Below, one piece after another: positions 2,063 to 62,978 of a DNA stretch of 64,000 bases. Position 1 is the stretch's first letter. Each line of letters starts with the position of its first letter. Location: contig CAINDO010000561.1 in assembly GCA_903847385.1 (NCBI GenBank), positions 10,328-74,327 of the forward strand, written 5' to 3'. The notes under the pieces are model-generated. The model did not search any database, was not told the DNA's origin, and saw nothing but the letters and a program-made list of their open reading frames with translations. The translations under genes and the position numbers were made by a program. Source of the DNA: an uncultured Myxococcales bacterium. GTDB taxonomy: Bacteria > Myxococcota_A > Bradymonadia > UBA7976 > UBA1532.

Positions 2063-2063
2063 C

Positions 2064-4556: not shown

Positions 4557-4609
4557 TGCCCCGAGCCACGGCGCGTATAAAGCGCCGGCCGCCCCGCCCC
4601 GAGAGTCCG

Positions 4610-5836: not shown

Positions 5837-5841
5837 CCGAC

Positions 5842-7764: not shown

Positions 7765-7787
7765 GTCGTCGTGCCGTCAGCAGACCG

Positions 7788-9716: not shown

Positions 9717-9754
9717 GGCGGCCGCCCGCGGGCCCTTGCCGGCCGGGGCCGCGC

Positions 9755-10378: not shown

Positions 10379-10395
10379 GGGGCCTCGGGGGGCGC

Positions 10396-13928: not shown

Positions 13929-13967
13929 GGAGCCCTTTCTGTCGCCGCGCGGGGCGGCGGAATCGGT

Positions 13968-14909
<942 letters not shown>

Positions 14910-14999
14910 TCGACTCCTCAGACCCCGATGCGTGCGGCGCTGTTTCAGCCGGGCACGTCGCGATTGCATCCGCCCGCGGGCCGGCGCCAGGATGCCCCC

Positions 15000-15983: not shown

Positions 15984-16003
15984 CGCCCCGAGCGTTCAGG
16001 CGC

Positions 16004-16690: not shown

Positions 16691-17933
16691 CTCCCTCGGC
16701 GTTGATGGCAACACCGGACTCGAACTCGGACATGTTCTGCTGGCTGGCGACGTCGAGCTTGACGGTCATCCAGTCGCGGGGGTTGAAGCCCGCGTACACG
16801 TTGCCGCGCAGGACCGGGTCCGTGCGGCTGTCGCCCTGTCGATCCACGCCGCCTGCGTCGTCCGAGTAGGCGTAGTGGTCGAAACCGACCCGCCCGCCGA
16901 CGCTGAAGCGCCCGAGGAAGTAGAAGTCGACGCTGCCGTAGACCTGGTTCAGCGTGTAGAAGTTCGCGAACGCCGTGTCGCGCCCGTCGCGGTTGTAGCC
17001 GAGCGAAGCGCGCAGCGCCGGCTCGATCGCGTACGTGAGCTCCGCCGTGGCGATCAGGTTCGAGAACGAGGTGCCCTCGGCGTTGAACGTGTTCTTGTAG
17101 CCGGCCTTGAGCGTCGTCGAAATGTGCCGTGTGACGAGGCCCTTCACGCCGGCGAGCACGAAGAACGGCTGCGCGTCGCGGTTGGTCCGCACCGATGATG
17201 TCTGGCCGCCCGCACCGGCCACGGCCACGTCCAGCTGCTTGTCGTACGAGAGCGAGGTCCAGCCGACCTCGGCGAGGAGCGCGGTCTTCGGCAGGAAACG
17301 CCAGCTCGTCAGGAAACGCAGATGGTGCGCGTCCTTCTCACCCACGCTGGTGTTCAACTCCTCGGCGTCGTCCCCGATGAAGTTCACCGACTGCCAGCGG
17401 TAGCCCAGGCGGAGCTCGAACGGCCGCGAGTCGGGGTTGTCACCGGGCCGGAAGCGCAGGTCGACCCCGAGGCTGTTGTCCAGCATCCGGAAGCCGAACT
17501 CCGTGTCGTCGAAGGCCGGGTTGTCGCGGAAGTTGCCGTCCTCGTGGACCTCGACCGTGATCGGCGAGCGCGGCAGGAATCCGACGGTCGCGTTCAGGTT
17601 CGCCCGATCGATGGTGTTGCGCGCGCTGAACTCCTCGCCGGACTCGAAGTAGTGGCGGTAGCTCAGACCCGCCCCCGCCTGGAGGGAGAGTTTGTTCGGC
17701 GAGCGGTTCTCGAGGCCGACCCCGACGCCGGCGCGCATCAGCGACGACGACTCGGGCTCCTCGCCCGTGTCGTCGAAGAAGACGTTGTTGTCGAACGCGC
17801 CCTGCACGAAGGCGTCCGGGTGGATGACGAGATCCCCCGCCCGGATGCCCGGCCCCTCGGCGTGCGCGAGCCCGGTCGCCGAAACGACGAGGAGGGCGGC
17901 CCGAAAGAGGGGTCTCTGCACACGCGTGATCAT
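16626..17933 (-). CDS. outer-membrane beta-barrel protein (candidate OPX partner / GltH-NfsH-like)
   Basis: Signal peptide 'LLVVSATGLAHA'. 435 aa of alternating amphipathic beta-strand pattern rich in G/Y/F/N/D, ending '...LQVNY'. Immediately upstream of and overlapping the OPX gene. Confidence 0.7.
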   Translation of the reverse strand: MITRVQRPLFRAALLVVSATGLAHAEGPGIRAGDLVIHPDAFVQGAFDNNVFFDDTGEEPESSSLMRAGVGVGLENRSPNKLSLQAGAGLSYRHYFESGEEFSARNTIDRANLNATVGFLPRSPITVEVHEDGNFRDNPAFDDTEFGFRMLDNSLGVDLRFRPGDNPDSRPFELRLGYRWQSVNFIGDDAEELNTSVGEKDAHHLRFLTSWRFLPKTALLAEVGWTSLSYDKQLDVAVAGAGGQTSSVRTNRDAQPFFVLAGVKGLVTRHISTTLKAGYKNTFNAEGTSFSNLIATAELTYAIEPALRASLGYNRDGRDTAFANFYTLNQVYGSVDFYFLGRFSVGGRVGFDHYAYSDDAGGVDRQGDSRTDPVLRGNVYAGFNPRDWMTVKLDVASQQNMSEFESGVAINAEGDGLDPVAYSRQLVMLELQVNY

Positions 17934-17961
17934 CCGGACGTCCTCGTCGCCTTCCTACGCT

Positions 17962-18525
17962 TCAATAGGCCAAGGTGGCGGGAAACGGACGATCGATGTC
18001 GATCGGCTCGCCGGCCAGGATGTCGCCCTCGGTCGGGTCGTCCTGCCGGATGTCGGAATCGATGGTGCTCTCGACCTCGGTGCCGCCGGTGTACTGCGAC
18101 TGCTCACCGACGCAGCCCTCGATCTCCACGCGGAACGCCTCGACCCTCGCGCGGGCGAGGTCGATCTTCGTCACGTTGTGGTGGATGAGCTCGGGGCTCT
18201 TCGCGCCGATGGCCTCGCGGAGGGCCTGCCCGGAGAGCTCGCCGATCTGGACCAGGCCGCGGATGGCCTTCACCTTCGCGTTGATGCAGTTGTACCGCAT
18301 CAGGTCCTTCTCGCCGCGGGCCTGCTCCAGCCGATCGATGCCCTGCTTCAGGGTGTCCTGCATCTGGTCGATGGAGGTCGACGACTGCTCGAGGACCTCG
18401 TCGTCCGAGCGCTTCTCCGCGGGGTTGGCCCCGGCGGTGGGCCCCGAGGTCGCTGCCGCGACTGCGCCTGCAGCGCAGAAGCCGACGAGCGTGGCCACGA
18501 GGGCGAAGCGGACTGTACGAATCAC
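17962..18525 (-). CDS. hypothetical secreted protein
   Basis: Signal peptide 'VRFALVATLVGFCAAGAVAAA'. Largely helical, acidic C-terminus. No recognisable domain. Confidence 0.55.
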   Translation of the reverse strand: MIRTVRFALVATLVGFCAAGAVAAATSGPTAGANPAEKRSDDEVLEQSSTSIDQMQDTLKQGIDRLEQARGEKDLMRYNCINAKVKAIRGLVQIGELSGQALREAIGAKSPELIHHNVTKIDLARARVEAFRVEIEGCVGEQSQYTGGTEVESTIDSDIRQDDPTEGDILAGEPIDIDRPFPATLAY

Positions 18526-44592: not shown

Positions 44593-45345
44593 ATGGGAAC
44601 CGAGTTCATTCGTGCCCTGGAACACCACCGCGCCCAGGCCCAGTCGGGCCCGCCTGCGGTCACGCCGCCCGCCCGCCTGCTGATGTCGTGGATCCACCAC
44701 GACAACATGCTCGAGGGCGAGATGTTCACGCCGCAGGAGATTCAGCAGGCGCTCATCGGCGCCGACGACGATCTCGACCGGTACCTGCACCCCCTCATGG
44801 ATCGGATCCGGCGCTACGCCGAGACCATCATGACCGTGTGGTCGCACGCCGACGGCGGCGCCCGGGCCGTGAACCTGGACAACCTGAAGCTCATCAACCG
44901 GATGCTGAACCCGGACCCGACGGATCGCGGTGGTCTGTATCGGCAGACGTCCCCTGTGCATCGGGACTACTACCAGCGCATCTGCCCGCCGGACAAGGTC
45001 ACCTACCACCTGCGCAAGCTCTTCGAGCAGGTGGAGACCGAGTGCGACTCCGCCTGTGATCCCGTCGCGTTCGCCGCCGAGATCCATCACAAGCTGATGG
45101 GCATCTACCCGTTCCGGAAGCAGCCCGGCACGACGGCGCGGCTCTTCACCAACCTCCTGCTCATGTCCCGCGGTTACCCGCCGGCCATCATCCCGGGCAA
45201 CCTGCGCAGCGAGTACTACGAAGCGCTCTGTAGCAATGAACCGGCCGACCTCGCCCGGATCTTCCGCATCAGCGTGCAGGGTTTCATGCGCGACCAGGGC
45301 GGGCGTGTCCTTCGCCCCGTGTCGGTTCAGGTCGGCCTGACCTGA
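44593..45345 (+). CDS. Fic/DOC (Fido)-family protein with non-canonical active-site motif
   Basis: Fido-fold helices. Motif region 'IHHKLMGIYPFRKQPGTTARLFTNLL' aligns to HPFx[DE]GNGRxxR but reads YPFRKQPGTTAR. Confidence 0.7.
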   Translation: MGTEFIRALEHHRAQAQSGPPAVTPPARLLMSWIHHDNMLEGEMFTPQEIQQALIGADDDLDRYLHPLMDRIRRYAETIMTVWSHADGGARAVNLDNLKLINRMLNPDPTDRGGLYRQTSPVHRDYYQRICPPDKVTYHLRKLFEQVETECDSACDPVAFAAEIHHKLMGIYPFRKQPGTTARLFTNLLLMSRGYPPAIIPGNLRSEYYEALCSNEPADLARIFRISVQGFMRDQGGRVLRPVSVQVGLT

Positions 45346-45359
45346 CTTCGCCCGAGCGG

Positions 45360-45899
45360 TCAGTTCGTCCAGATCGCGTCGACGAGCGTTCGCCCGTTCG
45401 AGAGGCAGGTCTCGGGGCCGAGCAACCGGTCCACCACGACGGGGTCGAGCGCCTCGCCCTTCTCGCGGCCGATGCGGATGCGCGCCACCGGGTTCGCGCT
45501 GCGCGACTGCACGTAACCCTGCTGCGCGTCGACGGCGAGGCGCGTCTCGAGCGAATAGAACACGAGCGAAACGGACTGGACGTCCGGGAGCGCCCGGAAG
45601 AGCGCGCCGATTCCATCCGCCCCCGCCAGGCGGCCCACGAGCAGCCAGCGGATCCCCTGGCACACGGCCGCATCGCGCCGTGCCGGGGGCAGCGTGCGCA
45701 GGAATCGGATCTCCAGCTCACCGTGGTCGTCGAGCGACAGACCCTCGCCGCTCTCCCGCCGCTCCGGCAGCGTGAGGAAGATGTGCAGGTGTTTGCGGAC
45801 CGCGGCCTCCAGCGCCGCGGGCTCGGGCGCGCCCGACGCCGGGCCCGCCGCCATCAGCCCGACGAGCGCGAGCGCCCGCCCCGCGGCGCGCTTTCGCAT
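45360..45899 (-). CDS. hypothetical secreted protein
   Basis: Real-looking 3' part of a junk 458-aa track ORF. Starts 'MRKRAAGRALALVGLMAAGPASGAPE' (signal peptide) at 45899. Confidence 0.5.
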   Translation of the reverse strand: MRKRAAGRALALVGLMAAGPASGAPEPAALEAAVRKHLHIFLTLPERRESGEGLSLDDHGELEIRFLRTLPPARRDAAVCQGIRWLLVGRLAGADGIGALFRALPDVQSVSLVFYSLETRLAVDAQQGYVQSRSANPVARIRIGREKGEALDPVVVDRLLGPETCLSNGRTLVDAIWTN

Positions 45900-45926
45900 C
45901 CGGACCGCATGGGCTAGGCTCGCCGC

Positions 45927-46742
45927 ATGCGCGAGCGCGATGGAGACAGGGTTTCGACGGGCCGGGTCCGGCATGGCACGCTCCGCCGGGTCGGGCTCGC
46001 CGGCTGTCTCGCATTGTGCCCGGGCGCGGTCTTCGCGGAAAGCGGCACGGAGACGGGCGTCACGCTGATCGCCGGGGCCGGGGTGTCGCACGCGTCGCTG
46101 GCGTTCACCGCCCCGAACGCGCTGGTCTCGACGCGCATCGACGCGCTGCCCGTCCTGCGGCTGGGCGTCGAGGCCTGGCCGGAGCGCGCGCTCGGTCTCC
46201 ACGCGGAGCTGGACCTCGGGACGGGCGCACAGCTCGGCGTGCCGGGCACGAACGCCCGCCTGGCCTACAACGCGCACCAGCTCCGCGCGGGTGGCTGGTA
46301 CCGGTGGCAGCCGGCGCCCGGCGGCGACGGCTGGGACGTTCGTCTCGGCCTGGGCCTCCAGGCGGTGTCGCAGCATGTGCAGGCGCAGAATCCAGCGCTC
46401 CTGGTCGAGAGTCAGGTGGCCGGGCCGGCGCTCGAGTCGCGCGTGGACAAGTTCTTCCTCTCCCGCCGCCTCCACCTCGGGCTCGGCGTCGGCGCCGCGC
46501 TGCCGTTCTTCGTCCGCGAGACGCCGCGCGACTCCGGTGACGCCGGCCGTTTCTACGCCTGGGGCGTCGGATTCGACGCCGGGTTCGCCCTCGGGCCCGC
46601 GCTCGCCCTCGCCCTGGACGTCCGGCACATCGACCAGACAGTGGTCTTCCGCGGCGAGGGCACGCGCGCGACGGGGACGAGCCGCGGCCGCACGCACGAC
46701 GCCTTCACGACCGGCGTGCTCTCGACCCGCTGGCACCTGTAG
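45927..46742 (+). CDS. hypothetical secreted protein, possibly outer-membrane beta-barrel
   Basis: Signal-peptide-like 'LRRVGLAGCLALCPGAVFA' and alternating hydrophobic/polar beta-strand pattern. Start uncertain. Confidence 0.45.
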   Translation: MRERDGDRVSTGRVRHGTLRRVGLAGCLALCPGAVFAESGTETGVTLIAGAGVSHASLAFTAPNALVSTRIDALPVLRLGVEAWPERALGLHAELDLGTGAQLGVPGTNARLAYNAHQLRAGGWYRWQPAPGGDGWDVRLGLGLQAVSQHVQAQNPALLVESQVAGPALESRVDKFFLSRRLHLGLGVGAALPFFVRETPRDSGDAGRFYAWGVGFDAGFALGPALALALDVRHIDQTVVFRGEGTRATGTSRGRTHDAFTTGVLSTRWHL

Positions 46743-46745
46743 CGC

Positions 46746-47276
46746 TCAGCGACGGAAGCAGCAGACGTCCAGCACGGTAGGGTCGTCGCACGCCGAATCG
46801 CCGGGCGTCTCGACGTCGCAGTCGATGTCCTGCGGGCGCGGATCCTCGGCGGCGTCCCAGGAGATCCAGGCCAGAAGCTTCCGGTACGCGCAGCTCTCCC
46901 TGGACTTCCAGCACACGGTGACGTGCGTCGCCCCGGGCGCCACGCTCTTCGGCAAGAGGTCGGCGATCAGCGGGCTCCCTTCGGCGACGTTCAGGTCGAG
47001 CTTCGCCTTCGTCGCGAGGTAGTTGTCGTCCAGCGCGGCGGCGCCCGGAGACACGACGAGCTTCAGGTCGCCCTGGGGGCCGCTGTGGCAGAGCGTGCCC
47101 GCGCTGCACCCAAGCCGCTCGAAGATCGGCTGAATCTCGGCGGCGAAGTCGTCTTTCCGCGGGCGCACGACGAGATGGGCGCGTTCAATCTCGCCGCAGG
47201 CGGTGACTGCGCCCACGAGCGTCAGCCAGGTTGTGAGATGGCGCGCCCGGGCTGCGCCCGCGGACCCGCGGCTCAC
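46746..47276 (-). CDS. hypothetical lipoprotein, Cys-rich
   Basis: Lipobox 'LVGAVTAC'. 9 further Cys. 4-bp overlap with the upstream gene. Confidence 0.5.
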   Translation of the reverse strand: MSRGSAGAARARHLTTWLTLVGAVTACGEIERAHLVVRPRKDDFAAEIQPIFERLGCSAGTLCHSGPQGDLKLVVSPGAAALDDNYLATKAKLDLNVAEGSPLIADLLPKSVAPGATHVTVCWKSRESCAYRKLLAWISWDAAEDPRPQDIDCDVETPGDSACDDPTVLDVCCFRR

Positions 47277-48316
47277 GCCACTTCGCGCGGGGCCACCTGG
47301 TTGAGCACCACGCCCAGGACCCGCTCCCGCCCCAGGCGGCCGACCGCCTTGTTCATCTCCGCGACGGAGGTCGACTCGGCGCGGAAGACCATGAACATGC
47401 CGTCGACCTTCTGCTTGATCACCAGCGCGTCGTCCTGCCCGAGGACCGCAGGGGCGTCCATGATGACCAGGTCGAACGCCTCATACAGCCGGTTCAGGAA
47501 GACGTCGAACTGGGGCGAGTTCAGGATCGTCATGCTCGAGTCGTACTGACCGCCGGTGTGGAGCAGGTACAGGTTGCGACCCTCGACCTTCTTCAGCGCG
47601 GCGTCCAGGCTGGCCCGCCCGCTGAGCACGTGCAGGAGCCCCGGATCACCATCCGGCACGCGCATGAGCCGGCCGAGGTCGGGCTTGCGGAAGTTCAGAT
47701 CGAGCAGCGCGATCTTCAGCCAGGGGTTCTCGCTCATCACGATGGCGAGGTTGAGCGCGGTCGTCGTGCGACCCTCGCCCGCGCGGGTGCTGGTGATGGC
47801 GATGGAACGGTAGCGAAGCTGGTCGATGATGCCCTCGACCTTGATCTTCAAGAGCCGGAACTGGCTGACGGCGGCGTGGGTCGGCGCCGTGAACGCCAGC
47901 ACGCCGGGCGCGAAGGCGGCGACGGGGAGTTCGGCCGTCAGGTCGTCGGGCGCGGGCACCTGCAGACCCGTGCGCGACGTGCGGCCGAGCAGCAGCGCCC
48001 GCCCACCGTCGACCTGGGTCGCCGCGCCGTCGACCACACCATCGAAGCCGCGCTCGGCGCTGGCCGAAGGCGCGCTCGTCGCGATGGCGTAGTTGCTGCC
48101 GCTCGGGCGCGCCGGAGCCTGATCCACGGCGGCGCTGATGTCGAAGAGCTCGATGACCTCTTCGCTGTCCGCGACCATCGCCTCCATGCTGTCGTAGATG
48201 AGATCGCGCTCTTCCGCACCGGCCTCGATGGTCCGGGCGTCGTCCGTGACCTCGTGGCCATCCAGCGTGAAGATGGAGGGCTTGCCGAGCGGCCCGCGTC
48301 GGTCGTCTTGGGACAT
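47273..48316 (-). CDS. BY-kinase/CpsD-like P-loop ATPase domain protein with degenerate Walker A (GEGRTT) and no C-terminal Tyr cluster
   Basis: Acidic, disordered N-terminal ~130 aa. Then 'ITSTRAGEGRTTTALNLAIV' (Lys->Arg in the P-loop), 'LLDLNFRKP', 'LVIMDAPAV'. C-terminus '...LNQVAPREVA' has no tyrosines. Confidence 0.7.
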   Translation of the reverse strand: MSQDDRRGPLGKPSIFTLDGHEVTDDARTIEAGAEERDLIYDSMEAMVADSEEVIELFDISAAVDQAPARPSGSNYAIATSAPSASAERGFDGVVDGAATQVDGGRALLLGRTSRTGLQVPAPDDLTAELPVAAFAPGVLAFTAPTHAAVSQFRLLKIKVEGIIDQLRYRSIAITSTRAGEGRTTTALNLAIVMSENPWLKIALLDLNFRKPDLGRLMRVPDGDPGLLHVLSGRASLDAALKKVEGRNLYLLHTGGQYDSSMTILNSPQFDVFLNRLYEAFDLVIMDAPAVLGQDDALVIKQKVDGMFMVFRAESTSVAEMNKAVGRLGRERVLGVVLNQVAPREVA

Positions 48317-48397
48317 GGGGAGCGGTTTCTACTCCGACACCGGGATTCCGGTCACGAGACTAGGTCAACGGGGGGTCGACCACAAGGCACTTCGGGT

Positions 48398-49525
48398 TTA
48401 CCCCCGGGCCGCCCAGGCGCCCATCAGGGACGCGCGGCACTCGGCGAGATCGCTGGGGCTCTTGATGGGCACGAACCTTGTTTCGGCGCCGACCCGCGGA
48501 ACCCTGAGCCAACACGTCGATTCGAAGGCCGTGAGCTCCCCGACGAGCCGCTCGAACTGCACCACGGGCCGCCCCTCGACCTCCTTGCGGACGACGAACC
48601 AGGTCAGCGCGTGCGCACGCGTCAGGGCCTCGGTCTGGAACCAGAGCGTGTTGGTGTTGAAGACCGGGATCGACGCCTGGTCGAAGTCGGCGGGAAACCG
48701 GAACGACTCGACGATCTGGAGCCGCCCGCCCACCCGTGCGGGCGCGCCACCGGCGTCACCGACCCACTTGTCCACCAACTCCACGGAGATGTTCTGCCCC
48801 GACGCCAGGTGCCGGCCGAGGAGCGTGGGATCGAGCGTCGCGACGACGTTGTCGACGTTGCTCATCAGCAGCGTTCGCCCGCCGGTGGCCTCGAAGCGTC
48901 CGAGCAGGCCGCTCGCGCGCAGGCATGGCCCCAAGTCTCCGTGGCCCGGACCGTAGAACGAAGGTTCGCCGTCCGCCTCGATGAAGACGTCACCCGCGGC
49001 GTCGAGCCGGGCGGTCCACTGCTGCTCGAAGGACCAGACGCGCTCCCTCGGATAGCCGAAGAAGTCGTTCTCCTCGAGATGGGCCTGCGTCGCCGCCTGG
49101 GTGGCGCGGCTGTTCATCAGGATCACGATGGGCGGCGGTGCGCCGTGCGCCCGGGCAACCCGCGCGGCGTCCAACAACTTGAGCGCGAGGAAGGAGTGAG
49201 CGCCGTCGACGGGCACGACGCCCTTGACCACCCCGCCGAACCGCGTCGCCATGCCGCCGTTGAGGACGACGAGGCCGACGTGTCCGGCGCGCAGCGAGGC
49301 CTCGCCCAGCGCCCGCGCTTCGGTGGCGGCCGGCAGGTCGGCACGGGACGCATCGATGATGTCCCCCGGCGTGGGCGGCAGGACCTCGCCCGTGACGCGG
49401 TTGCGCTCGCCGCCGAGTTCACCGGCGAGCCACGCGGCCCGGAGGCCGGCCAGCGTCGAGGCCCCGGGCGGGTGAGCGTCCAGTCGAGCGCGGAGCGCGG
49501 GGTCATCGGGCCAGGGGGCGGTCAT
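48398..49525 (-). CDS. UDP-sugar pyrophosphorylase family protein (UDPGP/UGPase-UAP-type nucleotidyltransferase)
   Basis: ATG at 49525 with AGGAGA SD; 'GLVVLNGGMATRFGG' pyrophosphorylase glycine-rich motif. The track's 5' Arg-rich extension is rejected. ATGA overlap with the rlmE stop. Confidence 0.75.
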   Translation of the reverse strand: MTAPWPDDPALRARLDAHPPGASTLAGLRAAWLAGELGGERNRVTGEVLPPTPGDIIDASRADLPAATEARALGEASLRAGHVGLVVLNGGMATRFGGVVKGVVPVDGAHSFLALKLLDAARVARAHGAPPPIVILMNSRATQAATQAHLEENDFFGYPRERVWSFEQQWTARLDAAGDVFIEADGEPSFYGPGHGDLGPCLRASGLLGRFEATGGRTLLMSNVDNVVATLDPTLLGRHLASGQNISVELVDKWVGDAGGAPARVGGRLQIVESFRFPADFDQASIPVFNTNTLWFQTEALTRAHALTWFVVRKEVEGRPVVQFERLVGELTAFESTCWLRVPRVGAETRFVPIKSPSDLAECRASLMGAWAARG

Positions 49526-50181
49526 CCGTTCTCTCCTGTATCGGACGTGGGCTCCGGGGCGCTCGGCTCTCCGGCGACGACGGGCGCCCCGGTGAAGCCG
49601 ATGCCCACGAAGAAGACCTCGACGCTCTCGGTGCGCGTGCCCTTCGGCTTGAGGCGCCGGAACTCGCTGAACCGCTCGCGGAAGGCGGCGGCGAGCACGG
49701 GGATGTCCTCGCCCTCGAAGGCCTTGCACACCACGGTGCCTCCCCGGCGCAGGGAGCGGTCGGCGACCGCGAGCACCCTGTGGCAGAGCTCCATCGAGCG
49801 GACGTGATCCGTGAATCGATTGCCGATGGTCGAGGGCGCCATGTCCGACACGACCACGTCGAACAGCTGGCCCGCCTCGAGGAGCGCCTCGACGGGGGTC
49901 TCGAAGGCGTCCGCCTGGAGCGTCCGGACGTGCGGCGGCAGCGGCACCTTGACCGGCTTGAGATCCAGCCCGACGACCCGGCCGTTCGGTCCGACCACCT
50001 TGCCGATGTACTGCAGCCAGGACCCCGGAGCGCACCCCAGGTCGAGCACCTTCTGGCCCGAGCGCAGAATCCGGTGCTTCTGGTCGATCTCCTCGAGCTT
50101 GTAAATGCTGCGCGCGGCGAACCCGTCCTTCTTCGCCTTGTGGAAGAAGTGGTCCTGTCGATGGTCGGTTCGGTTCTTCAC
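49522..50181 (-). CDS. rlmE: 23S rRNA (uridine-2'-O)-methyltransferase RlmE (FtsJ)
   Basis: 'VKNRTDHRQDHFFHKAKKDGFAARSIYKLEEIDQKHRILRSGQKVLDLGCAPGSWLQY' aligns with the E. coli RlmE N-terminus from the GTG at 50181. 'DVVVSDMAP' K-D-K-E family motifs. The track's longer N-terminus (to 50622) is Arg-rich and overlaps the upstream gene. Confidence 0.8.
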   Translation of the reverse strand: MKNRTDHRQDHFFHKAKKDGFAARSIYKLEEIDQKHRILRSGQKVLDLGCAPGSWLQYIGKVVGPNGRVVGLDLKPVKVPLPPHVRTLQADAFETPVEALLEAGQLFDVVVSDMAPSTIGNRFTDHVRSMELCHRVLAVADRSLRRGGTVVCKAFEGEDIPVLAAAFRERFSEFRRLKPKGTRTESVEVFFVGIGFTGAPVVAGEPSAPEPTSDTGENG

Positions 50182-50438
50182 GGGCGAACCCTGCCGCAGC
50201 GGTTCGCGCCGCGCAAGGGCCAGCAGGCGGGCCCGCCGCGCGGCCACGCTCGCGGCGCGCCGTGCGGCCGAGCGCACGACCGGCCCGTGGAGGTCGGTCA
50301 GCGCGTCCCCGGGCATCAGCTCCACCGGGAGTTCGGCCCGGGCGACATCGGCGACCCGGCCGTCCTCACTCGTGAAGACGCCGACGTCGCCCTCCCAACG
50401 GTCGAGCACCCAAAGGAGCCAGAACGCCACCAGCGCGC

Positions 50439-51206
50439 TCACGACGGTCGCCCCGCGCCGCCCTCGTCGTCCACGCCGGCCACGGGCCATGCCCGGGTGC
50501 CACCGGCGATCACGACCCCGGCGAACGGCAGATCGACCAGGCGCGCGGCGGCCAGAATCCGCTCGGCGGCCTCGATCTCGCGTTTCTGCGGCGCGCCGCC
50601 GGGCCGGACGCCGACCAACCACCAGGCACCTTCACCGGGGACCGCGAGCAGGCGGGCCAGCACGGCCCCCGCCCGGGTGTCGCTGCCCAGCGCGGAGCCC
50701 AGGGCGAGCGTCACCGGGCTCTCGGGCCGCTCCAGCCGGAACGCCAGCAGCGCGCGCTCTCCGATGGCCACCTGACCGCGCATCGCCTCGGCCACCTGAC
50801 GCCAGAGCGGCTGCGGCGCCTCGGTCGGCGTCGACGTGGGTGGCGGCGGCGTCTCGGCCGTCGCCCCGGTCGCCGCCCTCTGCCCCCCGCCCCGCCGTCC
50901 GAGCTCGAAGGCCGCGGCGATGCGCGTGGCTTTGACCGGCCCGACGCCATCCAGCCCCACCAACGCGGGCAGGTCGGCCCGGGCCAGGTGGGCCAGTCCA
51001 CCGTTCTCCCGCAAGAGCCGCTGGGCCAGCCCCAGGGCGTCCTCCCCGCTCCCGCGCCCGGTGCCCAGCACGACGGCCAGCAGCTCGGCGTCCTGCACGG
51101 CCGCGGTCCCCAGCGTCAACATGCGCTCCCGCGGTCGCTCGGACACGGGCATCTCCATCAGTCTCATCGTGACCTCCATCGTCGGTTGTGCGACGGAGAA
51201 CTTCAC
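50439..51206 (-). CDS. RadC-like (UPF0758) protein with HhH N-domain and degenerate JAB/MPN domain
   Basis: 'MPVSERPRERMLTLGTAAVQDAELLAVVLGTGRGSGEDALGLAQRLL...LVGLDGVGPVKATRIAAAFELGRR' RadC N-terminal domain. C-terminal region aligns to the JAMM core but 'HNHPSG' is replaced by 'GVRPGG'. Start codon uncertain (several Met near the N-terminus). Confidence 0.65.
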   Translation of the reverse strand: MKFSVAQPTMEVTMRLMEMPVSERPRERMLTLGTAAVQDAELLAVVLGTGRGSGEDALGLAQRLLRENGGLAHLARADLPALVGLDGVGPVKATRIAAAFELGRRGGGQRAATGATAETPPPPTSTPTEAPQPLWRQVAEAMRGQVAIGERALLAFRLERPESPVTLALGSALGSDTRAGAVLARLLAVPGEGAWWLVGVRPGGAPQKREIEAAERILAAARLVDLPFAGVVIAGGTRAWPVAGVDDEGGAGRPS

Positions 51207-51326: not shown

Positions 51327-51757
51327 TCACCCGAGCAGGTACTCCGCGGCGGGCAAGAGCGCCGTGCGCGCCCAGTAGCGGGCGAACTGCTCGACGGCGG
51401 CGGGGGCCACGTCCGGCGGCAGCGCGACGACGTTGGCCACGCCGAGGCCATGGCAGATGGTGACGGCGTCCGGATCGTCCGGATGCCCGACCACCACCCG
51501 CGGCACGCAGCGCCACACCGGCGCCCGTTCGAGGAGACGGAGCAGCGCCCAGTCGTCGGCGCGCGCCGCCTCGACGGGCACCACCAGCAACTGCGGCAGG
51601 CCCCGAACCTCGGGCATCGCGCCCGTTCGGCGCCAGGTGTCCGCCTGCGCCTCGGCGACGAGCTCGACCGCCATGCCGTGCGAGGCGAGCTGGGCGGTCA
51701 GCGGGGCGCGCCAGGGCGCGGCCTCGGCCGCGATCAACCAGGTCGTTCGACCCGCGC

Positions 51758-51761
<4 letters not shown>
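51327..51761 (-). CDS. hypothetical protein, possible degenerate receiver-like (pseudo-REC) domain
   Basis: 144 aa. ATGA overlap with the pilin gene stop. Alternating beta/alpha hydrophobic pattern ('TWLIAAEAA', '[19 protein letters not shown]', '[10 protein letters not shown]') reminiscent of the CheY fold, without the canonical DD...D...T...K residues. Confidence 0.4.
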
Positions 51762-52342
<581 letters not shown>

Positions 52343-55385: not shown

Positions 55386-55460
55386 CACCCGGCGCAGCGC
55401 CTCCTTATATAGCGGCTACGCCGCAAAGCGCTCCCCCGCTCCGTCAGCACAGAGAGGCCC

Positions 55461-57158
55461 ATGTCCGACCATCGTCTCGGCGAGCTCCTGATTCGAGAGA
55501 ACCTGATCACCCTCGTCCAGCTCAAGGACGCGGATGAGACGCGACGCAAGACGGGCGAGAAGCTCGGCTACACGCTGACCAAGCTGGGATTCATCGGCGA
55601 GCGCGAGCTCACGAGCTTCCTGAGCAAGCAGTACGGCGTCCCCTCGATCAACCTGAACGAGTTCGAGATCGACGCGGAGGTCATCAAGCTGATCCCGCGC
55701 GAGATGGCGCAGCAACATCAGGTCATCCCGGTGCAGCGCGCCGGCAACGCCCTGATCGTCGCCATGGCCGATCCGTCGAACCTCCACGCCATCGACGACG
55801 TGAAGTTCCTCACGGGCTACAACATCGAGCCCGTCGTCGCGAGCGAGGAGGCCATCCGCAACGCCATCGAGCGGTACTACTCGCAGAAGTCCAACATCGC
55901 CGCGTTGATGGAGGAGTTCAGCGAAGAGGACGTCGAGGTCGCCGAGCAGGAGCAGGACGAGGACGTCCTCGACCTCGAGCGCTCCAGCGAGGAGGCCCCC
56001 GTCGTCCGCCTCGTGAACATGGTCCTCGTCGAGGCCATCAAGCGCGGCGCCTCCGACATCCACATCGAGCCCTACGAGAAGTCGTTCCGCGTCCGCTACC
56101 GCATCGACGGCGTGCTCTACGAGATCCTCAACCCGCCGATGAAGCTGCGCAACGCGATCATCAGCCGCGTGAAGATCATGTCCAACATGGACATCGCCGA
56201 GCGCCGCCTCCCGCAGGACGGCCGCATCAAGATCAAGCTCGGCGGCGGCCGCGAGATGGACTTCCGCGTCAGCGTGATGCCCACGCTGTTCGGCGAGAAG
56301 ATCGTGTTGCGTCTGCTCGACAAGGGCAACCTGCAGCTCGACATGACGAAGCTCGGCTTCGAGGAGCACACCCTCAGCCGCTTCAAAGAGGCCATTCACA
56401 AGCCCTACGGCATGGTGCTCGTCACCGGCCCCACGGGCTCCGGCAAGACGACGACGCTGTACTCGGCCCTCTCCGAGCTCAACAAGACGAGCGAGAACAT
56501 CTCGACCGCCGAGGATCCCGTGGAGTTCAACCTCCCCGGCATCAACCAGTGTCAGATGAACGACTCGATCGGCCTGAACTTCGCCGCCGCGCTCCGCTGC
56601 TTCCTGCGGCAGGACCCCGACATCATCATGGTGGGCGAGATCCGCGACTTCGAGACGGCGGAAATCGGCGTCAAGGCCGCCTTGACGGGCCACTTGGTGC
56701 TCTCGACGCTCCACACGAACGACGCGCCGTCCACGGTGCATCGTCTCCTGAACATGGGCGTCGAGCCCTTTCTCGTCACGGCCTCGGTGAACGCCATCGT
56801 CGCCCAGCGTCTGGCCCGCAAGATCTGCAACGAGTGCAAAGAGGTCCTGAAGCTGCCCCCCCAGGCGCTCATCGATCTCGGGGTGCCGCCGGACCGGGCC
56901 GCCAAGGCCACCGTGTACAAGGGCAACGGCTGCCGCAACTGCAACGACACCGGCTACAAGGGCCGCGTGGCGCTTTACGAGGTCATGGTGCTCGACGACG
57001 AGCTCAAGGACTTCATCCTCCAGGGTGTCTCGAGCGTCGAGCTCAAGCGCGAGGCCGTGCGCCTCGGCATGAAGACGCTGCGTCAGGCCGCTTTGACCAA
57101 GCTGCTCGATGGCGTCACCACCACCGCCGAGGTCGTCCGAAACTCCGCCGCCGACTGA
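55461..57158 (+). CDS. pilB: type IV pilus assembly ATPase PilB (GspE family, N-terminal MshEN/T2SSE_N domain)
   Basis: Walker A 'GPTGSGKTTT', Asp box, His box. Tetracysteine 'CNECKE...CRNCNDTGYKGR'. Confidence 0.95.
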   Translation: MSDHRLGELLIRENLITLVQLKDADETRRKTGEKLGYTLTKLGFIGERELTSFLSKQYGVPSINLNEFEIDAEVIKLIPREMAQQHQVIPVQRAGNALIVAMADPSNLHAIDDVKFLTGYNIEPVVASEEAIRNAIERYYSQKSNIAALMEEFSEEDVEVAEQEQDEDVLDLERSSEEAPVVRLVNMVLVEAIKRGASDIHIEPYEKSFRVRYRIDGVLYEILNPPMKLRNAIISRVKIMSNMDIAERRLPQDGRIKIKLGGGREMDFRVSVMPTLFGEKIVLRLLDKGNLQLDMTKLGFEEHTLSRFKEAIHKPYGMVLVTGPTGSGKTTTLYSALSELNKTSENISTAEDPVEFNLPGINQCQMNDSIGLNFAAALRCFLRQDPDIIMVGEIRDFETAEIGVKAALTGHLVLSTLHTNDAPSTVHRLLNMGVEPFLVTASVNAIVAQRLARKICNECKEVLKLPPQALIDLGVPPDRAAKATVYKGNGCRNCNDTGYKGRVALYEVMVLDDELKDFILQGVSSVELKREAVRLGMKTLRQAALTKLLDGVTTTAEVVRNSAAD

Positions 57159-57165
57159 GTCCTCC

Positions 57166-58248
57166 ATGGCCAATCTGCACCAGCTCCTGAAGGTCATGGT
57201 CGAGAAGGGGGCGAGCGACCTGCACATCACGTGCGGCTCCCCGCCCCAGCTCCGGATCGATGGCCACCTCATCCCCCTCAAGACGCCGCCCCTGAGCCGC
57301 GAGGACACGCAGCAGCTCTGCTACTCGTTCCTCACGGAGTCGCAGAAGCACAAGTTCGAGGAGACCAACGAGCTCGACCTCAGCTTCGGCGTGAAGGGCA
57401 TGAGCCGATTCCGCGCGAACCTGTTCATGCAGCGCGGCGCCGTGTCGGCCACGTTCCGAGTCATCCCGATGAAGATCCACACGTTCGAGGAGCTCGGACT
57501 CCCGAACACCATCGGCGACATGACCAACAAGACCAAGGGTCTCATCCTGGTCACGGGCCCCACGGGCTCCGGCAAGTCCACCACGCTCGCCGCGATGGTG
57601 GACAAGATCAACGCCGAGAAGCACTACCACATCCTCACCATCGAGGACCCGATCGAGTACCTGCATCCCCACAAGAGCTCGATCGTGAACCAGCGCGAGA
57701 TCGGCAGCGACACGGTCGATTTCAAGACCGCGCTGAAGTACGTGCTACGCCAGGATCCGGACGTGGTGCTGGTGGGCGAGATGCGCGACCTCGAGACGGT
57801 CGAGGCCGCCCTGACCATCAGCGAGACGGGCCACTTGTGCATGGCCACGCTGCACACGAACGGCGCCGTGCAGGCGATCAACCGCATCATCGACCTCTTC
57901 CCGCCCCACCAGCAGGGACAGATCCGGTCGCAGTTGAGCTTCACGCTCGAGGCCGTCGTCGCGCAGCAGCTCATCATGCGCTCCTCCGGTGTGGGCCGGG
58001 TGCTGGCCTGCGAGGTCATGATCCCCACGCCGGCCATTCGCAATCTCATCCGCGAGGACAAGATCCACCAGATCTACAGCCAGATGCAGGTCGGCCAGAC
58101 CCGCTTCGGCATGCAGACCATGAATCAGTCCCTCCTGGGCCTGTACCAGCGGGGCGAGATCACGCTCGAGGACGCGCTGGCTCACTCCAACGACGTCGAC
58201 GAGATGCGCACCATGATCGCCGGCGGAAACACGGCCAGCGCGCGCTGA
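57166..58248 (+). CDS. pilT: type IV pilus retraction ATPase PilT
   Basis: 'MANLHQLLKVMVEKGASDLHI', Walker A 'GPTGSGKSTT', 'AIRNLIRE' PilT motif. 361 aa. Confidence 0.95.
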   Translation: MANLHQLLKVMVEKGASDLHITCGSPPQLRIDGHLIPLKTPPLSREDTQQLCYSFLTESQKHKFEETNELDLSFGVKGMSRFRANLFMQRGAVSATFRVIPMKIHTFEELGLPNTIGDMTNKTKGLILVTGPTGSGKSTTLAAMVDKINAEKHYHILTIEDPIEYLHPHKSSIVNQREIGSDTVDFKTALKYVLRQDPDVVLVGEMRDLETVEAALTISETGHLCMATLHTNGAVQAINRIIDLFPPHQQGQIRSQLSFTLEAVVAQQLIMRSSGVGRVLACEVMIPTPAIRNLIREDKIHQIYSQMQVGQTRFGMQTMNQSLLGLYQRGEITLEDALAHSNDVDEMRTMIAGGNTASAR

Positions 58249-58264
58249 GCGAGATCCCCGACCG

Positions 58265-59923
58265 ATGATCAAGGCATTCAACGCGTGGCCCGAGTGGGCC
58301 CGGTACGGGTTCGTCTTCGCTTTCGCGCTGCTGTTCTGGAGCCCCAGCCTCTTCAACGAGTTCGCCTGGGACGACACGAACAACCTCGTCGACTCGGACC
58401 GACTGCGCGGCTGGGCCGCGTTCGCCGAGTGTTTCCGGCACGACGCGATGTGGTCCGCCCGAATGAACGCCGCGGCCATCGGCACCTACCGGCCGATCTC
58501 CCTGGCGTCGTTCGTCGTGGACTACCAGCTCTTCGGCGGCTCGGCGATCTCGTACCACTTCACCAGCCTGTTCTGGCACGCCCTGGCCTGCGTGGTGGTC
58601 TTCGCCGTGCTACGCCGCTTCATGGGGCTCGTCGAGTCGCTCGTTGCGACGTGCCTCTTCTGCGTCGTCCCCGTGAACGCCGAGGCCGTGGCCTGGGTGA
58701 ACGGCCGCTCCGAGATCTTCGCCCTGCTCTTCGGAGGTCTGGGCGTCGTCGTCGCCACGAGCCCGCGGCTGCCCTGGTTCGTGCGCCTCGCCGGCACCGC
58801 GCCCCTGCTGCTTCTGGGCATGCTCGGCAAGGAGACCGGGGTGATCTTCTGTGCCGTCGCCGTGCTGCTCGGCACCGAGGCGCGCCATCGCCGCGTCGAG
58901 GCGCCCCGTCTGTGGTTGCGCAGCCTGGACCTGACGGCGCTGCTCTCCGGCGTGCTCGCGCTGGCCGGTTACCTGTGGATCCGCCACCTGGTCTTCGGCG
59001 GCAATCCCCTCCCCGGCGCCACGGAGAAGCTCTCCAGCAGCGCCGACCTGATGGGCATCCTGGCGCAGGCCGCCTCGATCGTGTGGAAGTGTTTCGCCAC
59101 GGTGGTCATCCCCGATCGCATCTCCGTCGGCTACTTGTACAACTGGGCCCAGGCCCTGACGCGAACGGATCTGATCGTCGCCTGGAGCGCCCTCGCCGTC
59201 GTGGCGGCGGGGCTCGTGTTCGCCTGGCTGCGCGGTCATCGCCTCGCGATCCTGATGCTGGCGTGGTGGGGCTTCTCCATCGCGCCGGTGCTCATCCTGG
59301 TCGGGCGCGACTGGCCGGGGCTCGCGCGCTGGCTCTACATGGGCGGCCCGGGGCTCGTCGCCGCCGGCGCGCTGCTGCTGCGCCTCGTCCCGTGGCGCAC
59401 GGTCACGACCTTCGTCGGCGCGGCCTACGGCCTCGTCTGGTCCGTGCAGGCGCAGCGCAGCATCGAGGTCTGGCACGACTCGGGGACACTCTTCGAGCGC
59501 ATGATCATCGAGGAGCCGGGCGAGCGGTTCGGGTACCTGAGCCTCTCCTGGTATTACCTGCGCATCGCCGACTACCCCAACTCCGAGAAGATGGCGCGCA
59601 AGGTGCTCGAGCTCGGCCCGCGGGGCCACGATCCGCTGCCCTTCCTGGCGGCGGCGTTGGCCGCCCAGGACAAGTGCGACGAGGCCCGCAAGACCGTCTA
59701 TGAGCCGACGCCGATGCCGACACGCGCCGCCTGGATGATGTTCTCGGTGGGCGCCTGTTACGAGCGCGCCGGCCGACCGGCGGACGCCCTGCCGCTCTAC
59801 AAGGACTGCGTCGCTGGCGACAAGGCCTGCGAGTCGAAGGCCGCGACGCTGAGCGCGAGCCTGGCCAGCGCTGCCCCCGAGAGCGCCGAGCCGAGCGCGC
59901 CGGCGACGGTCGCACCTCGCTGA
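58265..59923 (+). CDS. GT-C fold membrane glycosyltransferase, PMT/TMTC(DUF1736)-like, with C-terminal TPR domain
   Basis: ~11 TM helices. N-terminal loop 'FNEFAWDDTNNLVDSD' (DD/DE-type motif of PMT/ArnT-like GT-C enzymes). C-terminal soluble TPR-like repeats ('YLSLSWYYLRIADYPNSEKMARKVLELGP...'). Confidence 0.7.
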   Translation: MIKAFNAWPEWARYGFVFAFALLFWSPSLFNEFAWDDTNNLVDSDRLRGWAAFAECFRHDAMWSARMNAAAIGTYRPISLASFVVDYQLFGGSAISYHFTSLFWHALACVVVFAVLRRFMGLVESLVATCLFCVVPVNAEAVAWVNGRSEIFALLFGGLGVVVATSPRLPWFVRLAGTAPLLLLGMLGKETGVIFCAVAVLLGTEARHRRVEAPRLWLRSLDLTALLSGVLALAGYLWIRHLVFGGNPLPGATEKLSSSADLMGILAQAASIVWKCFATVVIPDRISVGYLYNWAQALTRTDLIVAWSALAVVAAGLVFAWLRGHRLAILMLAWWGFSIAPVLILVGRDWPGLARWLYMGGPGLVAAGALLLRLVPWRTVTTFVGAAYGLVWSVQAQRSIEVWHDSGTLFERMIIEEPGERFGYLSLSWYYLRIADYPNSEKMARKVLELGPRGHDPLPFLAAALAAQDKCDEARKTVYEPTPMPTRAAWMMFSVGACYERAGRPADALPLYKDCVAGDKACESKAATLSASLASAAPESAEPSAPATVAPR

Positions 59924-60026
59924 ACGGCCGAATTCCGTCCCCCCCCAGGCCGCAGGTTGCGGTCCCCGATGCATGGGCATAACATCCCACGGGTTCGGTC
60001 GGGATCGGTCGGTGGAGGAGGAGCGC

Positions 60027-61235
<1,209 letters not shown>

Positions 61236-61247
61236 CGGCCGCCCAGC

Positions 61248-62978
61248 GTGTTCCGCCGCTCCTCCGACGCCCCGCCCGACCCCGCCCCTCCGGCCGTCCC
61301 CGAGATCGTCAGCAAGATCCAGTGGCTGATGTTCTTCCGGGTGATCATGGTCACCGTCCTGCTCGGGTCGACCCTGATCGTCAACGTCAAGGACGCCGAC
61401 CTGCTGTCGGATCCCGGGACCCTGACCGTCCTCGGGCTCATCGTCGGCACCTACCTGCTGACGATCGCCTACGCGCTGTTGCTCCCGCGGCTGAAGCAGC
61501 ACCGGCCGTTCGCGTACGTGCAGCTCGTCGGCGACCTGCTGACGTCGTTCGTGCTGATCCTCCTCACGGGGGGCGTGGAGAGCGTCTTCACGTTCATGTT
61601 CGCGCTCACCGTGATGAACGGCGCGATCCTGCTGTTCCGGCGCGGCGCGATCACGATGGCGCTGCTCTCCGCGGTGCTCATCGGCCTGATCGTCGTCCGC
61701 GACTGGGCGCACATGCCGGGGGCCGGCGCGTCGCCGAGCGCCAGCCGCGGCCTCGTGTTGTGGGCGATGACCAACGTGAGCGCGGTGCTCCTCGTGGCGC
61801 TGCTGGCCGGGTATCTCAGCGACCAGCTCAGCTTCGCCGGGCAGCGCATCCAATCGCAGAGCGAGGACCTGGAGCAGCTGCGAACGCTCAACCAGCACAT
61901 CATCACGAGCCTGCAGTCGGGGCTCGTCAGCCACACGCTCGACGGCCGGGTCATCTTCTTCAACCAGGCGGCGGAGCGCATCACCGGCCTCCGGGCGGAC
62001 GACGTCCTCTACCAGGACGTGCGCACGATCTTTCCGCGTCTCGAGCCCGACGCCCCGCCCGGCGGGGCGGCGGCCACGGGGCTGAACCGCTGGGAGGAGA
62101 CCTTCGAGACCCCCGACGGACAGGTGCGCATCCTGGGCATGAGCCGCTCTCCCCTGCTGGACTCGGGCGGCGCGAGCCGTGGCGCCGTCGTCGTGTTCCA
62201 GGACCTCACCCCGATGCGGACGCTGGAGCAGCAGATTCGACGCAGCGAGAAGTTCGCCGCCATCGGCAAGATGGCCGCGGGCATCGCCCACGAGATCCGC
62301 AACCCGCTCGCCAGCATCAGCGGCAGCATCCAGATGCTCAAGCGGGGCGCCAACCTGGAGAAGACCGACAGCCGACTGATGGAGATCGTCCTGCGTGAGG
62401 TCGAGCGCCTCAACGCGTTGATCACGGACTTCCTCCGATTCGCCCGGCCGGCGCCGCCACAGCTCGAACGCACGCACCTCGGCGCCCTGCTGAACGAGGT
62501 GATCGAGGTCTTCCGCTACATGCAGAGTCAGGGTGAGGGCGGTCCGCGCTACGACGTCGACCTGATGGTCGGAGACTCGGTCATCGTTCAGGCCGATCCC
62601 CGGCAGCTCAAACAGGTCGTCTGGAACCTCTTGAACAACGCCGTGGACGCCATGCCGAGCGGCGGCCTGATCCAGATGCAGGCCGTCGTGACCGGGACGT
62701 CCGGCGCCGACGACGACGGCGTCGAGCTGCGGCTGTCGGACACGGGGATCGGCATCACCGCCGAGAACCTGTCGCGCGTGTTCGACCCGTTCTTCAGCAC
62801 CAAACCACGCGGGAGCGGCCTCGGCCTCGCGCTCGTCCACCGGATCGTGGAGGAGCACGGCGGCACAATCCACGTGGAGAGCGAGCCGGGCAAGGGCACC
62901 ACCATGATCATCCGTTTCCCGGCCCCGGCGAACGCTCCGGTCATCCGGCAGCCGTCGCCCTCGGAGATGCTCACATGA
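61248..62978 (+). CDS. pilS: sensor histidine kinase PilS-like (polytopic membrane domain, PAS, HisKA, HATPase_c)
   Basis: Six N-terminal TM helices, PAS-like region, H-box 'AAGIAHEIRNPLASI', N/G boxes 'NLLNNAVDAM...DTGIGI...GSGLGLALVHRIV'. GTG 61248. Confidence 0.85.
   Translation: MFRRSSDAPPDPAPPAVPEIVSKIQWLMFFRVIMVTVLLGSTLIVNVKDADLLSDPGTLTVLGLIVGTYLLTIAYALLLPRLKQHRPFAYVQLVGDLLTSFVLILLTGGVESVFTFMFALTVMNGAILLFRRGAITMALLSAVLIGLIVVRDWAHMPGAGASPSASRGLVLWAMTNVSAVLLVALLAGYLSDQLSFAGQRIQSQSEDLEQLRTLNQHIITSLQSGLVSHTLDGRVIFFNQAAERITGLRADDVLYQDVRTIFPRLEPDAPPGGAAATGLNRWEETFETPDGQVRILGMSRSPLLDSGGASRGAVVVFQDLTPMRTLEQQIRRSEKFAAIGKMAAGIAHEIRNPLASISGSIQMLKRGANLEKTDSRLMEIVLREVERLNALITDFLRFARPAPPQLERTHLGALLNEVIEVFRYMQSQGEGGPRYDVDLMVGDSVIVQADPRQLKQVVWNLLNNAVDAMPSGGLIQMQAVVTGTSGADDDGVELRLSDTGIGITAENLSRVFDPFFSTKPRGSGLGLALVHRIVEEHGGTIHVESEPGKGTTMIIRFPAPANAPVIRQPSPSEMLT

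Follow-up and report, generated by a model that had tools for sequence, protein, structure and literature searches.

In a 64,000-nucleotide stretch of the genome of an uncultured Myxococcales bacterium (contig CAINDO010000561.1, positions 10,328 to 74,327; hereafter the window, in whose own numbering all positions are given), the minus strand encodes, from 51.2 down to 46.7 kb and in the order of transcription, a protein carrying only the N-terminal domain of RadC (RadC-N), an rRNA methyltransferase-like protein of the FtsJ/RlmE family, a UDPGP-family pyrophosphorylase for sugars of uridine diphosphate (UDP) and, after a gap of 81 bp, a protein with the fold of a bacterial tyrosine kinase (BY-kinase) and a lipoprotein. 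The BY-kinase-like protein is very probably not a tyrosine autokinase, judging from its motifs. The reading preferred here, to which a probability of roughly 0.55 is assigned, is that it acts as a stand-alone BY pseudokinase-like scaffold and that, together with the coupled lipoprotein, it forms a transcription unit of its own within a block of genes whose order is conserved in the lineage. The initial annotation had described four of these genes, from rlmE to the lipoprotein, as one unusual rlmE operon; the four genes and their coordinates are real, and every statement made there at the level of sequence holds. The window has a GC content of ~70%, and coding frames were picked by means of the GC pattern at third codon positions.

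The BY-kinase-like gene (47273–48316, minus strand, as are all features described here unless stated otherwise) encodes 347 residues. Residues 1–125 (47942..48316) form an acidic N-terminal extension that is predicted to be disordered, with a predicted local distance difference test score below 50, and residues 126–347 (47273..47941) form a P-loop domain modelled with confidence by AlphaFold2 from the family alignment and ending directly after its last strand. When this domain was compared with the PDB using Foldseek, the closest structure was the kinase domain of Wzc (1.4e-16), followed by VpsO, CapAB chimeras, BceF and Etk, all with a probability of 1.00; its core aligns with residues 493–700 of Wzc. 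The sequence profile searched against PDB chains returned VpsO (6.7e-29), Wzc (1.3e-19), BceF, CapB and Etk, with MinD matched only at 1.5e-10 or weaker. Models of BY-kinases are also the best matches in NCBIfam, each of them below its cut-off: TIGR03018 (8.9e-26, 90.5 bits against 230.65), TIGR01007 (2.2e-25, 89.4 bits against 108.05) and models of EpsG and Wzc; TIGR03029 (78.6 bits against 313.8) is not reached either. Assignment to the MinD/ParA family was rejected on the difference between the MinD and VpsO values and on the fact that the Pfam matches to ParA, CbiA and AAA_31 all fall below cut-off.

The gene is functional and not decaying, because the ratio of nonsynonymous to synonymous substitution rates (dN/dS; Nei-Gojobori method, window gene against the orthologues at loci L008, L009 and L001) is only 0.09–0.12 in the domain and because motifs of the family are invariant; 65 columns are invariant across 17 family sequences down to 40% identity. 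The corresponding values for the N-terminal extension are 0.26–0.31, and on this substitution pattern the extension is translated and constrained. Short motifs are conserved within it ([VI]YDSME, V[IV]EL[FY]DI and FDGVxDG..T..DGGRAL), and the domain itself contains a segment, MSENPWLK, that lies between the P-loop helix and the Walker-A' strand and is both invariant and specific to the family.

BY-kinases are characterized by a Walker A motif GX5GK[ST], a Walker A' motif phi4-DXDXR and a Walker B motif phi4-DX2P; mutants in the Walker-A lysine lose activity, and the second aspartate of Walker A' has been proposed to recognize the substrate tyrosine and to drive the chemistry (PMC9800525). The window protein departs from this pattern at several points. 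As the initial annotation had read, its P-loop (STRAGEGRTT) has no lysine, the position being occupied by Arg183 (codon CGC, 47768..47770; GEG-R-TT), and no tyrosine tail is present, the C-terminus reading ...VVLNQVAPREVA with no tyrosine among the last 25 residues. In addition, the Walker-A' motif is D206-L-N208-F-R210 (47687..47701, within LLDLNFR), with asparagine in place of the second aspartate of the canonical DxDxR. Walker B is retained as LVIMDAPA, with Asp287 (47456..47458) and Pro289 invariant across the family alignments. A sequencing error in the P-loop, which the initial annotation had allowed for as a way in which lysine might be restored, was considered and is excluded: CGC is two substitutions away from either lysine codon, it recurs in L019, which stems from an independent metagenome assembly and shares 99.9% identity over 3.2 kb, and arginine is encoded by CGC, CGA or CGG in the nearest orthologues.

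These departures are properties of the family and were followed in 20 orthologue clusters (40–98% identity) obtained by a search of 5.8 billion protein clusters. The Walker-A lysine position holds Arg in 12 of them, Lys in 5, Thr in 2 and Val in 1, and the glycine preceding it is replaced by Arg, Glu or Gln in some. Walker A' reads DL[NH][FL]R in all 20, and all 20 have no tyrosine in the last 25 residues. The ExxRxxR oligomerization motif is partly preserved (SQFRLLK), with serine in place of glutamate and with an arginine and a lysine (R154, K157) kept. The description of the protein as BY-kinase-like but degenerate, given in the initial annotation, is thus borne out: the fold is kept, the Walker-A lysine position is variable (R/K/T/V), the second Walker-A' aspartate is lost and there is no tyrosine cluster.

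The loss of that aspartate is informative beyond the family. Among the 144 nearest non-family representatives, 131 have a recognizable P-loop; of these, proteins with aspartate at the second Walker-A' position carry at least 2 tyrosines in the tail in 65 of 79 cases, against 2 of 26 for those with asparagine or histidine there. Because of this contrast, loss of the Walker-A' aspartate is a good marker for loss of autokinase function, and it offers a sequence rule for annotation: since loss of the aspartate accompanies loss of the tyrosine tail, it could sort kinases from pseudokinases among proteins that all currently bear the label 'CpsD/CapB family tyrosine-protein kinase'. Many of the nearest non-family proteins are likewise tail-less with [DE]xN[FL]R. 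They include a group with FHA/Yop-YscD_cpl domains (P0177, P0187, P0257) that shares [DE]xN[FL]R and the absence of a tyrosine tail and of a polysaccharide co-polymerase (PCP) domain with the window protein, and that ranks near the family in the profile search, interleaved with canonical tyrosine-tailed kinases. These proteins differ from the window protein in their intact Walker-A lysine, in their length (470–690 residues) and in a folded N-terminal FHA domain, where the window protein has an acidic disordered N-terminus. We know of no published function for FHA-type tail-less proteins of this kind.

The family is small, isolated and restricted to one lineage. When 1.84 billion representatives were searched exhaustively with a profile, 6 clusters scored above 440 bits and the next match was at 171 bits; in a collection of species-representative genomes, 7 loci were found in 6 metagenome-assembled genomes (MAGs) labelled Bradymonadia, Myxococcota or Myxococcales. 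Lake Mendota and Lake Baikal are indicated by isolate names among these 6 MAGs, and one of them (GCA_046290225.1) holds two paralogues. The orthologues come from uncultured freshwater Myxococcota/Bradymonadia MAGs. A paralogous subgroup (P0018–P0020; 400–520 residues) has a longer and different N-terminus and reads DLHLR at Walker A' (loci L002 and L014; the L002 gene lies at 8001–9206). Its neighbours are a histidine kinase, a Ser/Thr kinase with AAA_16/TPR and an AAA_35 protein, and the rlmE/UDPGP block is not nearby.

Gene order was compared by tblastn of the window proteins against 13 loci from relatives and by inspection of gene calls on five orthologue contigs. The conserved block comprises a pilin, a protein of 146 residues, RadC-N, an RlmE preceded by a DUF3006-like domain (DUF3006::RlmE), UDPGP, an optional insert, the BY-kinase-like protein and the lipoprotein, and continues with a small beta-barrel-like protein on the opposite strand, a secreted protein, Fic, IlvE, GlnE (in some cases), GlmU, GlmS and UvrD. 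The optional insert is a pair of opposite-strand genes, encoding a beta-propeller protein of ~690 residues and a protein of ~250 residues, that lies between UDPGP and the BY-kinase-like gene at L004/L013 (4841–7614 in L004), L005 (4941–7764), L010 (about 7100–9900) and on the contig of P0008; it is absent from the window and its closest relatives. Because opposite-strand genes intervene, a promoter of its own is required for the BY-kinase-like gene in those four relatives. In genomes where UDPGP and the BY-kinase-like gene are direct neighbours, the gap between them is 80–110 bp (81 bp in the window, 48317–48397, as initially annotated), and about 40–70 nt before the BY-kinase-like start a motif of the form TTGnnn-N15-20-nTAnn[CT]T is found in the window (TTGTGG-N17-TAGTCT, 48357..48385), in L008, L009, L001 and L012, and also in L007. 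The promoter-like motif and the insert in four relatives together argue for a separate unit, and the locus probably consists of two transcription units, RadC-N/RlmE/UDPGP and BY-kinase-like/lipoprotein. The single four-gene rlmE operon proposed in the initial annotation is not supported, given the conserved motif in the 81-bp gap (TTGTnn-N17/18-TAGnCT-like) and the two opposite-strand genes at that place in four relatives. A scan of the gap with the strict sigma-70 consensus found nothing, sigma-70 and terminator scans being uninformative in DNA of 70% GC, and no regulatory RNA or tRNA was found in the gap or anywhere in the window.

The lipoprotein (46746..47276, 176 residues, 9 cysteines) is coupled translationally to the BY-kinase-like gene, as the initial annotation had it: its GTG start overlaps the upstream stop as GTGA, and in 8 of the 10 related genomes the lipoprotein gene either overlaps the BY-kinase-like stop or begins at most 14 nt after it. 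It is a predicted bacterial lipoprotein, with a signal peptide and a lipobox (consensus [LVI][ASTVI][GAS]C; here ...LVGAVTA-C27) that reads L(A/P/V)(G/A/S)-C-GE in 8 orthologues. Besides the lipidation cysteine with GE, the conserved features are an RPRxDD segment, the motif IQP..E..GC-x5-CH, and Cys122, Cys129 and Cys153. Its homologues fill only 18 clusters, all of the same lineage and none annotated. Assignment as a cytochrome c or PSCyt1-like domain was considered and finds no support, the combination of a CXXCH haem motif with a match to a cytochrome family or fold not being found.

The closest published counterparts are EcpK (MXAN_7447) of Myxococcus xanthus and HfsB of Caulobacter crescentus, stand-alone BY pseudokinases that have been proposed to be scaffolds, in the case of EcpK instead of acting by phosphorylation; EcpK binds EpsV and HfsB binds HfsA, both partners being PCP-2 proteins without a kinase (PMC12004946). 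The window protein resembles EcpK in being stand-alone and cytoplasmic, in its BY-kinase-like Rossmann/P-loop fold, in having no C-terminal tyrosine cluster and an unstructured N-terminus, in departing from the catalytic motifs, and in belonging to the same phylum-level group. However, none of the three Walker motifs is present in EcpK, which also lacks several elements of secondary structure, terminates with a basic helix and is encoded in eps clusters (PMC12004946). In the window protein, Walker B is intact, Walker A and A' are mostly preserved and the core is complete; the chain stops after the last strand, the acidic N-terminus spans 125 residues, and no kinase-less PCP-2 is encoded nearby. 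The protein is set apart from EcpK by comparison with the published description. HfsB is likewise a stand-alone BY-kinase-like protein with no tyrosine tail and lacks catalytic residues, but it is encoded with PCP-2 HfsA, which it stabilizes, in the holdfast locus (PMC12004946), while no such partner and no polysaccharide locus surround the window gene. With canonical BY-kinases (Wzc, Etk, VpsO, BceF, CapB/CpsD) the window protein shares the fold, Walker B and the FR..K of the N-terminal helix; it differs in having Arg for Lys, Asn for the second Walker-A' Asp and no tyrosine cluster, and in being neither fused nor adjacent to a PCP or a CapA-like membrane adaptor. The pairing with a kinase-less PCP-2 in a polysaccharide cluster that typifies EcpK and HfsB is not seen in the sequence available. 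Compared by published description, the window protein is classed as a variant of the BY-pseudokinase kind that stands outside the EcpK/HfsB subfamily.

Under the preferred reading, the first unit (RadC-N, DUF3006::RlmE and UDPGP, translationally coupled) would serve housekeeping and UDP-sugar supply, and the second, comprising the BY-kinase-like gene and the coupled lipoprotein gene, would be transcribed from a separate promoter within the 81-bp gap. The BY-kinase-like family would have kept the P-loop fold and given up tyrosine autophosphorylation, and the protein would work through protein-protein contacts as a scaffold or adaptor, with nucleotide binding at most; such contacts might be made by the invariant MSENPWLK surface and by the short motifs of the disordered acidic N-terminus. 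The scaffold would be either independent of nucleotide or a sensor of it, and the probability given to any one partner is low.

Several observations weigh against this reading. The separate promoter in the gap is a putative one, recognized by its motif. The lipoprotein gene is absent in L001 and in L004/L013, so that the lipoprotein is not an obligate partner. No kinase-less PCP-2, nor any other PCP, was found within ±8–10 kb of the gene in 10 related genomes or beside the paralogue, and the single PCP encoded in the 64 kb of the window, Wzc, is complete and carries a kinase itself. Finally, the P-loop threonine, the first Walker-A' aspartate and Asp287 of Walker B are invariant in the family, the Walker-A lysine itself is kept in 5 of the 20 orthologue clusters, and nucleotide binding or even slow hydrolysis may be of importance for the protein.

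BY pseudokinases have been recognized only recently (EcpK in 2025, and HfsB) and have so far been defined by partnership with kinase-less PCP-2 proteins. The family stands at an intermediate stage of degeneration: it retains the fold, Walker B and some of the P-loop, has lost the tyrosine-specific features and is under strong purifying selection. It thus offers a clean natural example of stepwise degeneration from kinase to pseudokinase, and a test case for which parts of the BY-kinase fold a non-catalytic function needs and for possible action outside polysaccharide co-polymerase complexes. The hosts are uncultured and the practical impact is limited for now.

The same invariant residues form the starting point for an alternative in which the protein is an active P-loop nucleoside triphosphatase, or a nucleotide-dependent switch like MinD/ParA, with arginine replacing lysine and with an output other than autophosphorylation. 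In its favour are the invariance of the Walker-B aspartate, the P-loop threonine and the first Walker-A' aspartate, a detectable relationship to MinD, and nearby tail-less DxNxR proteins that keep the lysine and carry FHA, which suggests a clade of cytoplasmic ATPases. However, orthologues with threonine or valine at the lysine position, and with Arg, Glu or Gln at the preceding glycine, are hard to square with a catalytic requirement; moreover, the P-loop RAGEGRTT has no signature lysine of the MinD type (KGGxGK[ST]), and there is no C-terminal amphipathic helix. A switch of this type is regarded as unlikely.

A second alternative, raised in the initial annotation, is that the protein regulates, with no catalysis of its own, the Wzc encoded at 10396–12606, for example by entering or capping the octameric kinase ring or by competing for tyrosine tails. 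That Wzc is canonical (REGKTS, DTDLRRP, LDSPP and a YGQYYHPYYRKHGTYY tail) and is a complete PCP-2a, with Wzz, GNVR, kinase and tyrosine tail. Compatible with such a role are its presence in the same genome, the 33% identity of its kinase with the BY-kinase-like domain over 176 residues (DTDLR being aligned to DLNFR), the part of the ring-forming helix motif that is kept (R154, K157), and the frequent action of pseudokinases on their active paralogues in eukaryotes (a point raised in PMC12004946). Yet the BY-kinase-like gene lies 35 kb from the exopolysaccharide cluster, in housekeeping and pilus surroundings; the glutamate of ExxRxxR is serine, and Wzc is self-sufficient as a PCP-2a; no PCP is co-localized in relatives or with the paralogue; and EcpK appears to function independently of active BY-kinases in M. 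xanthus (PMC12004946). The probability given to regulation of Wzc is accordingly low.

In a third alternative the protein would regulate UDP-sugar supply as an adaptor that binds UDPGP or GlmU/GlmS. BY-kinases phosphorylate UDP-sugar dehydrogenases, a form of control that such an adaptor would echo, and UDPGP lies within 3 kb upstream of the BY-kinase-like gene in 10 of 10 genomes, with GlmU and GlmS in the same conserved block. However, synteny across one narrow lineage is weak evidence, opposite-strand genes intervene in 4 genomes, the paralogue is without such neighbours, and UDPGP homologues elsewhere in Myxococcota have no BY-kinase-like neighbour; this role is considered very unlikely. 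That the gene is a functionless, decaying relic of a kinase gene, as its degenerate catalytic motifs might suggest, is next to impossible and was ruled out, given the domain dN/dS of ~0.1, the 65 invariant columns and family motifs, the intact frame in all assemblies and the conserved downstream coupling.

A broader proposal concerns the cell envelope. The BY-kinase-like protein and the C-x5-C-H lipoprotein might be the two ends of an undescribed, lineage-confined envelope module to which the beta-barrel and secreted proteins may also belong; this is quite unlikely. If true, it would mean that a BY-kinase fold devoid of kinase activity has taken on a new use outside Wzx/Wzy polysaccharide co-polymerase systems, and this would be the first BY pseudokinase to function without a PCP-2 partner. 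The module might connect a lipoprotein that senses redox state or metals in the periplasm with UDP-sugar supply in the cytoplasm or with the neighbouring type IV pilus machinery. The two further genes lie just beyond the lipoprotein: a convergent gene on the plus strand (45927..46742) encodes a putative small outer-membrane beta-barrel protein of 271 residues (weak PF13505 match, 0.023), and a minus-strand gene (45360..45890) encodes a secreted protein of about 176–180 residues, whose signal peptide was read from the translation. In tblastn, the small beta-barrel-like protein follows the lipoprotein in L004–L013, and orthologues of the ~176-residue secreted protein were found in 9 loci; together (45360–46742) the OMP_b-brl-like and secreted proteins always accompany the BY-kinase-like/lipoprotein pair, except in L001.

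The first transcription unit shows features of its own. The RlmE reading frame as initially annotated (49522–50181, minus strand) matches PF01728 (FtsJ) at 1.8e-47 and scores below the RlmE equivalog cut-offs, with 155.7 bits for TIGR00438 (cut-off 300.15) and 128.8 bits for NF008390 (cut-off 269); the segments YKL, SDMAP, CKAFEG and TESVEVF in its translation presumably hold the K-D-K-E tetrad of E. coli RlmE. The frame is open to 50622; within it, the GTG at 50442 shares the sequence GTGA with the stop codon of RadC-N. Starting there, the protein gains a DUF3006-like N-terminus of ~87 residues (PF11213, 1.6e-4) that is kept in orthologous gene calls of 304–323 residues with DUF3006 and FtsJ, and 278–313 residues of the long form align by tblastn at six loci (L005 and L008–L012). 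The start is therefore probably at 50442 and not at 50181, which leaves the initially annotated right boundary of the region 261 bp short, and the probable full-length product is a 23S rRNA 2'-O-methyltransferase-like protein of 306 residues (49522..50442; PF01728 at 4.5e-47 for the long form). A DUF3006 extension is a non-standard architecture for RlmE. The gene upstream (50439..51206) encodes a RadC-like protein of 255 residues with the UPF0758 N-terminal domain only (PF20582, 3.2e-21) and no Pfam match to the usual C-terminal JAB/RadC domain; since RadC-N followed by rlmE with a 4-bp overlap also occurs on the contigs of relatives, RadC-N probably opens the rlmE transcription unit.

Downstream, the rlmE stop and the UDPGP start overlap as ATGA (49525–49522), in agreement with the initial annotation. 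In Proteobacteria rlmE is almost always followed by ftsH; in the present lineage the pairing of rlmE with UDPGP is conserved. The UDPGP gene (48398..49525) encodes a UDP-sugar pyrophosphorylase of the eukaryote type with 375 residues, which matches PF01704 at 1.4e-39 (136.4 bits against a gathering score of 22) and has no match in NCBIfam; its homologues (n=2566) are mostly labelled Myxococcota, Polyangiales or Bradymonadia. On a metagenome contig (L018, 5001–6755) FtsJ/RlmE and UDPGP domains are fused in a single polypeptide of 584 residues (P0143), a fusion that suggests a functional link between the two ATGA-coupled genes. A general myxobacterial rlmE-UDPGP operon was considered and is not supported, as three distant Myxococcota/Polyangiales homologues of UDPGP have other neighbours.

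The wider surroundings of the BY-kinase-like gene are housekeeping and type IV pilus genes, with GlmS, GlmU, UvrD and IlvE on one side and RibF, AroE and PilB/T/C/S on the other. A type IV pilin-like gene with a coupled gene for 146 residues (51327–52342, minus strand) directly precedes the RadC-N/rlmE unit, and a PilB-PilT-TPR-PilC-PilS cluster (55413–62978, plus strand) begins 3 kb beyond it. A Fic-domain protein is encoded at 44593–45345 on the plus strand, with weak PADLOC matches to PDC-S04 (2.2e-7) and SoFic (1e-5); a housekeeping rather than a mobile defence role is indicated for it because it occupies the same position in all relatives. Membership in an anti-phage defence system was considered for the BY-kinase-like protein, the lipoprotein, UDPGP and their neighbours, and was rejected, as these weak Fic-family matches are the only ones in PADLOC. 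At the far end of the window, positions 1824–18000 hold a complete Wzx/Wzy-type cluster that comprises, in addition to the canonical Wzc, a Wzy_C protein, a GT4 glycosyltransferase, AsnB, a UDP-glucose dehydrogenase, an epimerase, a short Wza (Poly_export+SLBB) and an adjacent protein of 442 residues with no Pfam match; an open reading frame at ~7.8–9.7 kb can be interpreted as a fusion of a sugar-phosphate transferase with a polytopic Wzy/ligase-like region.

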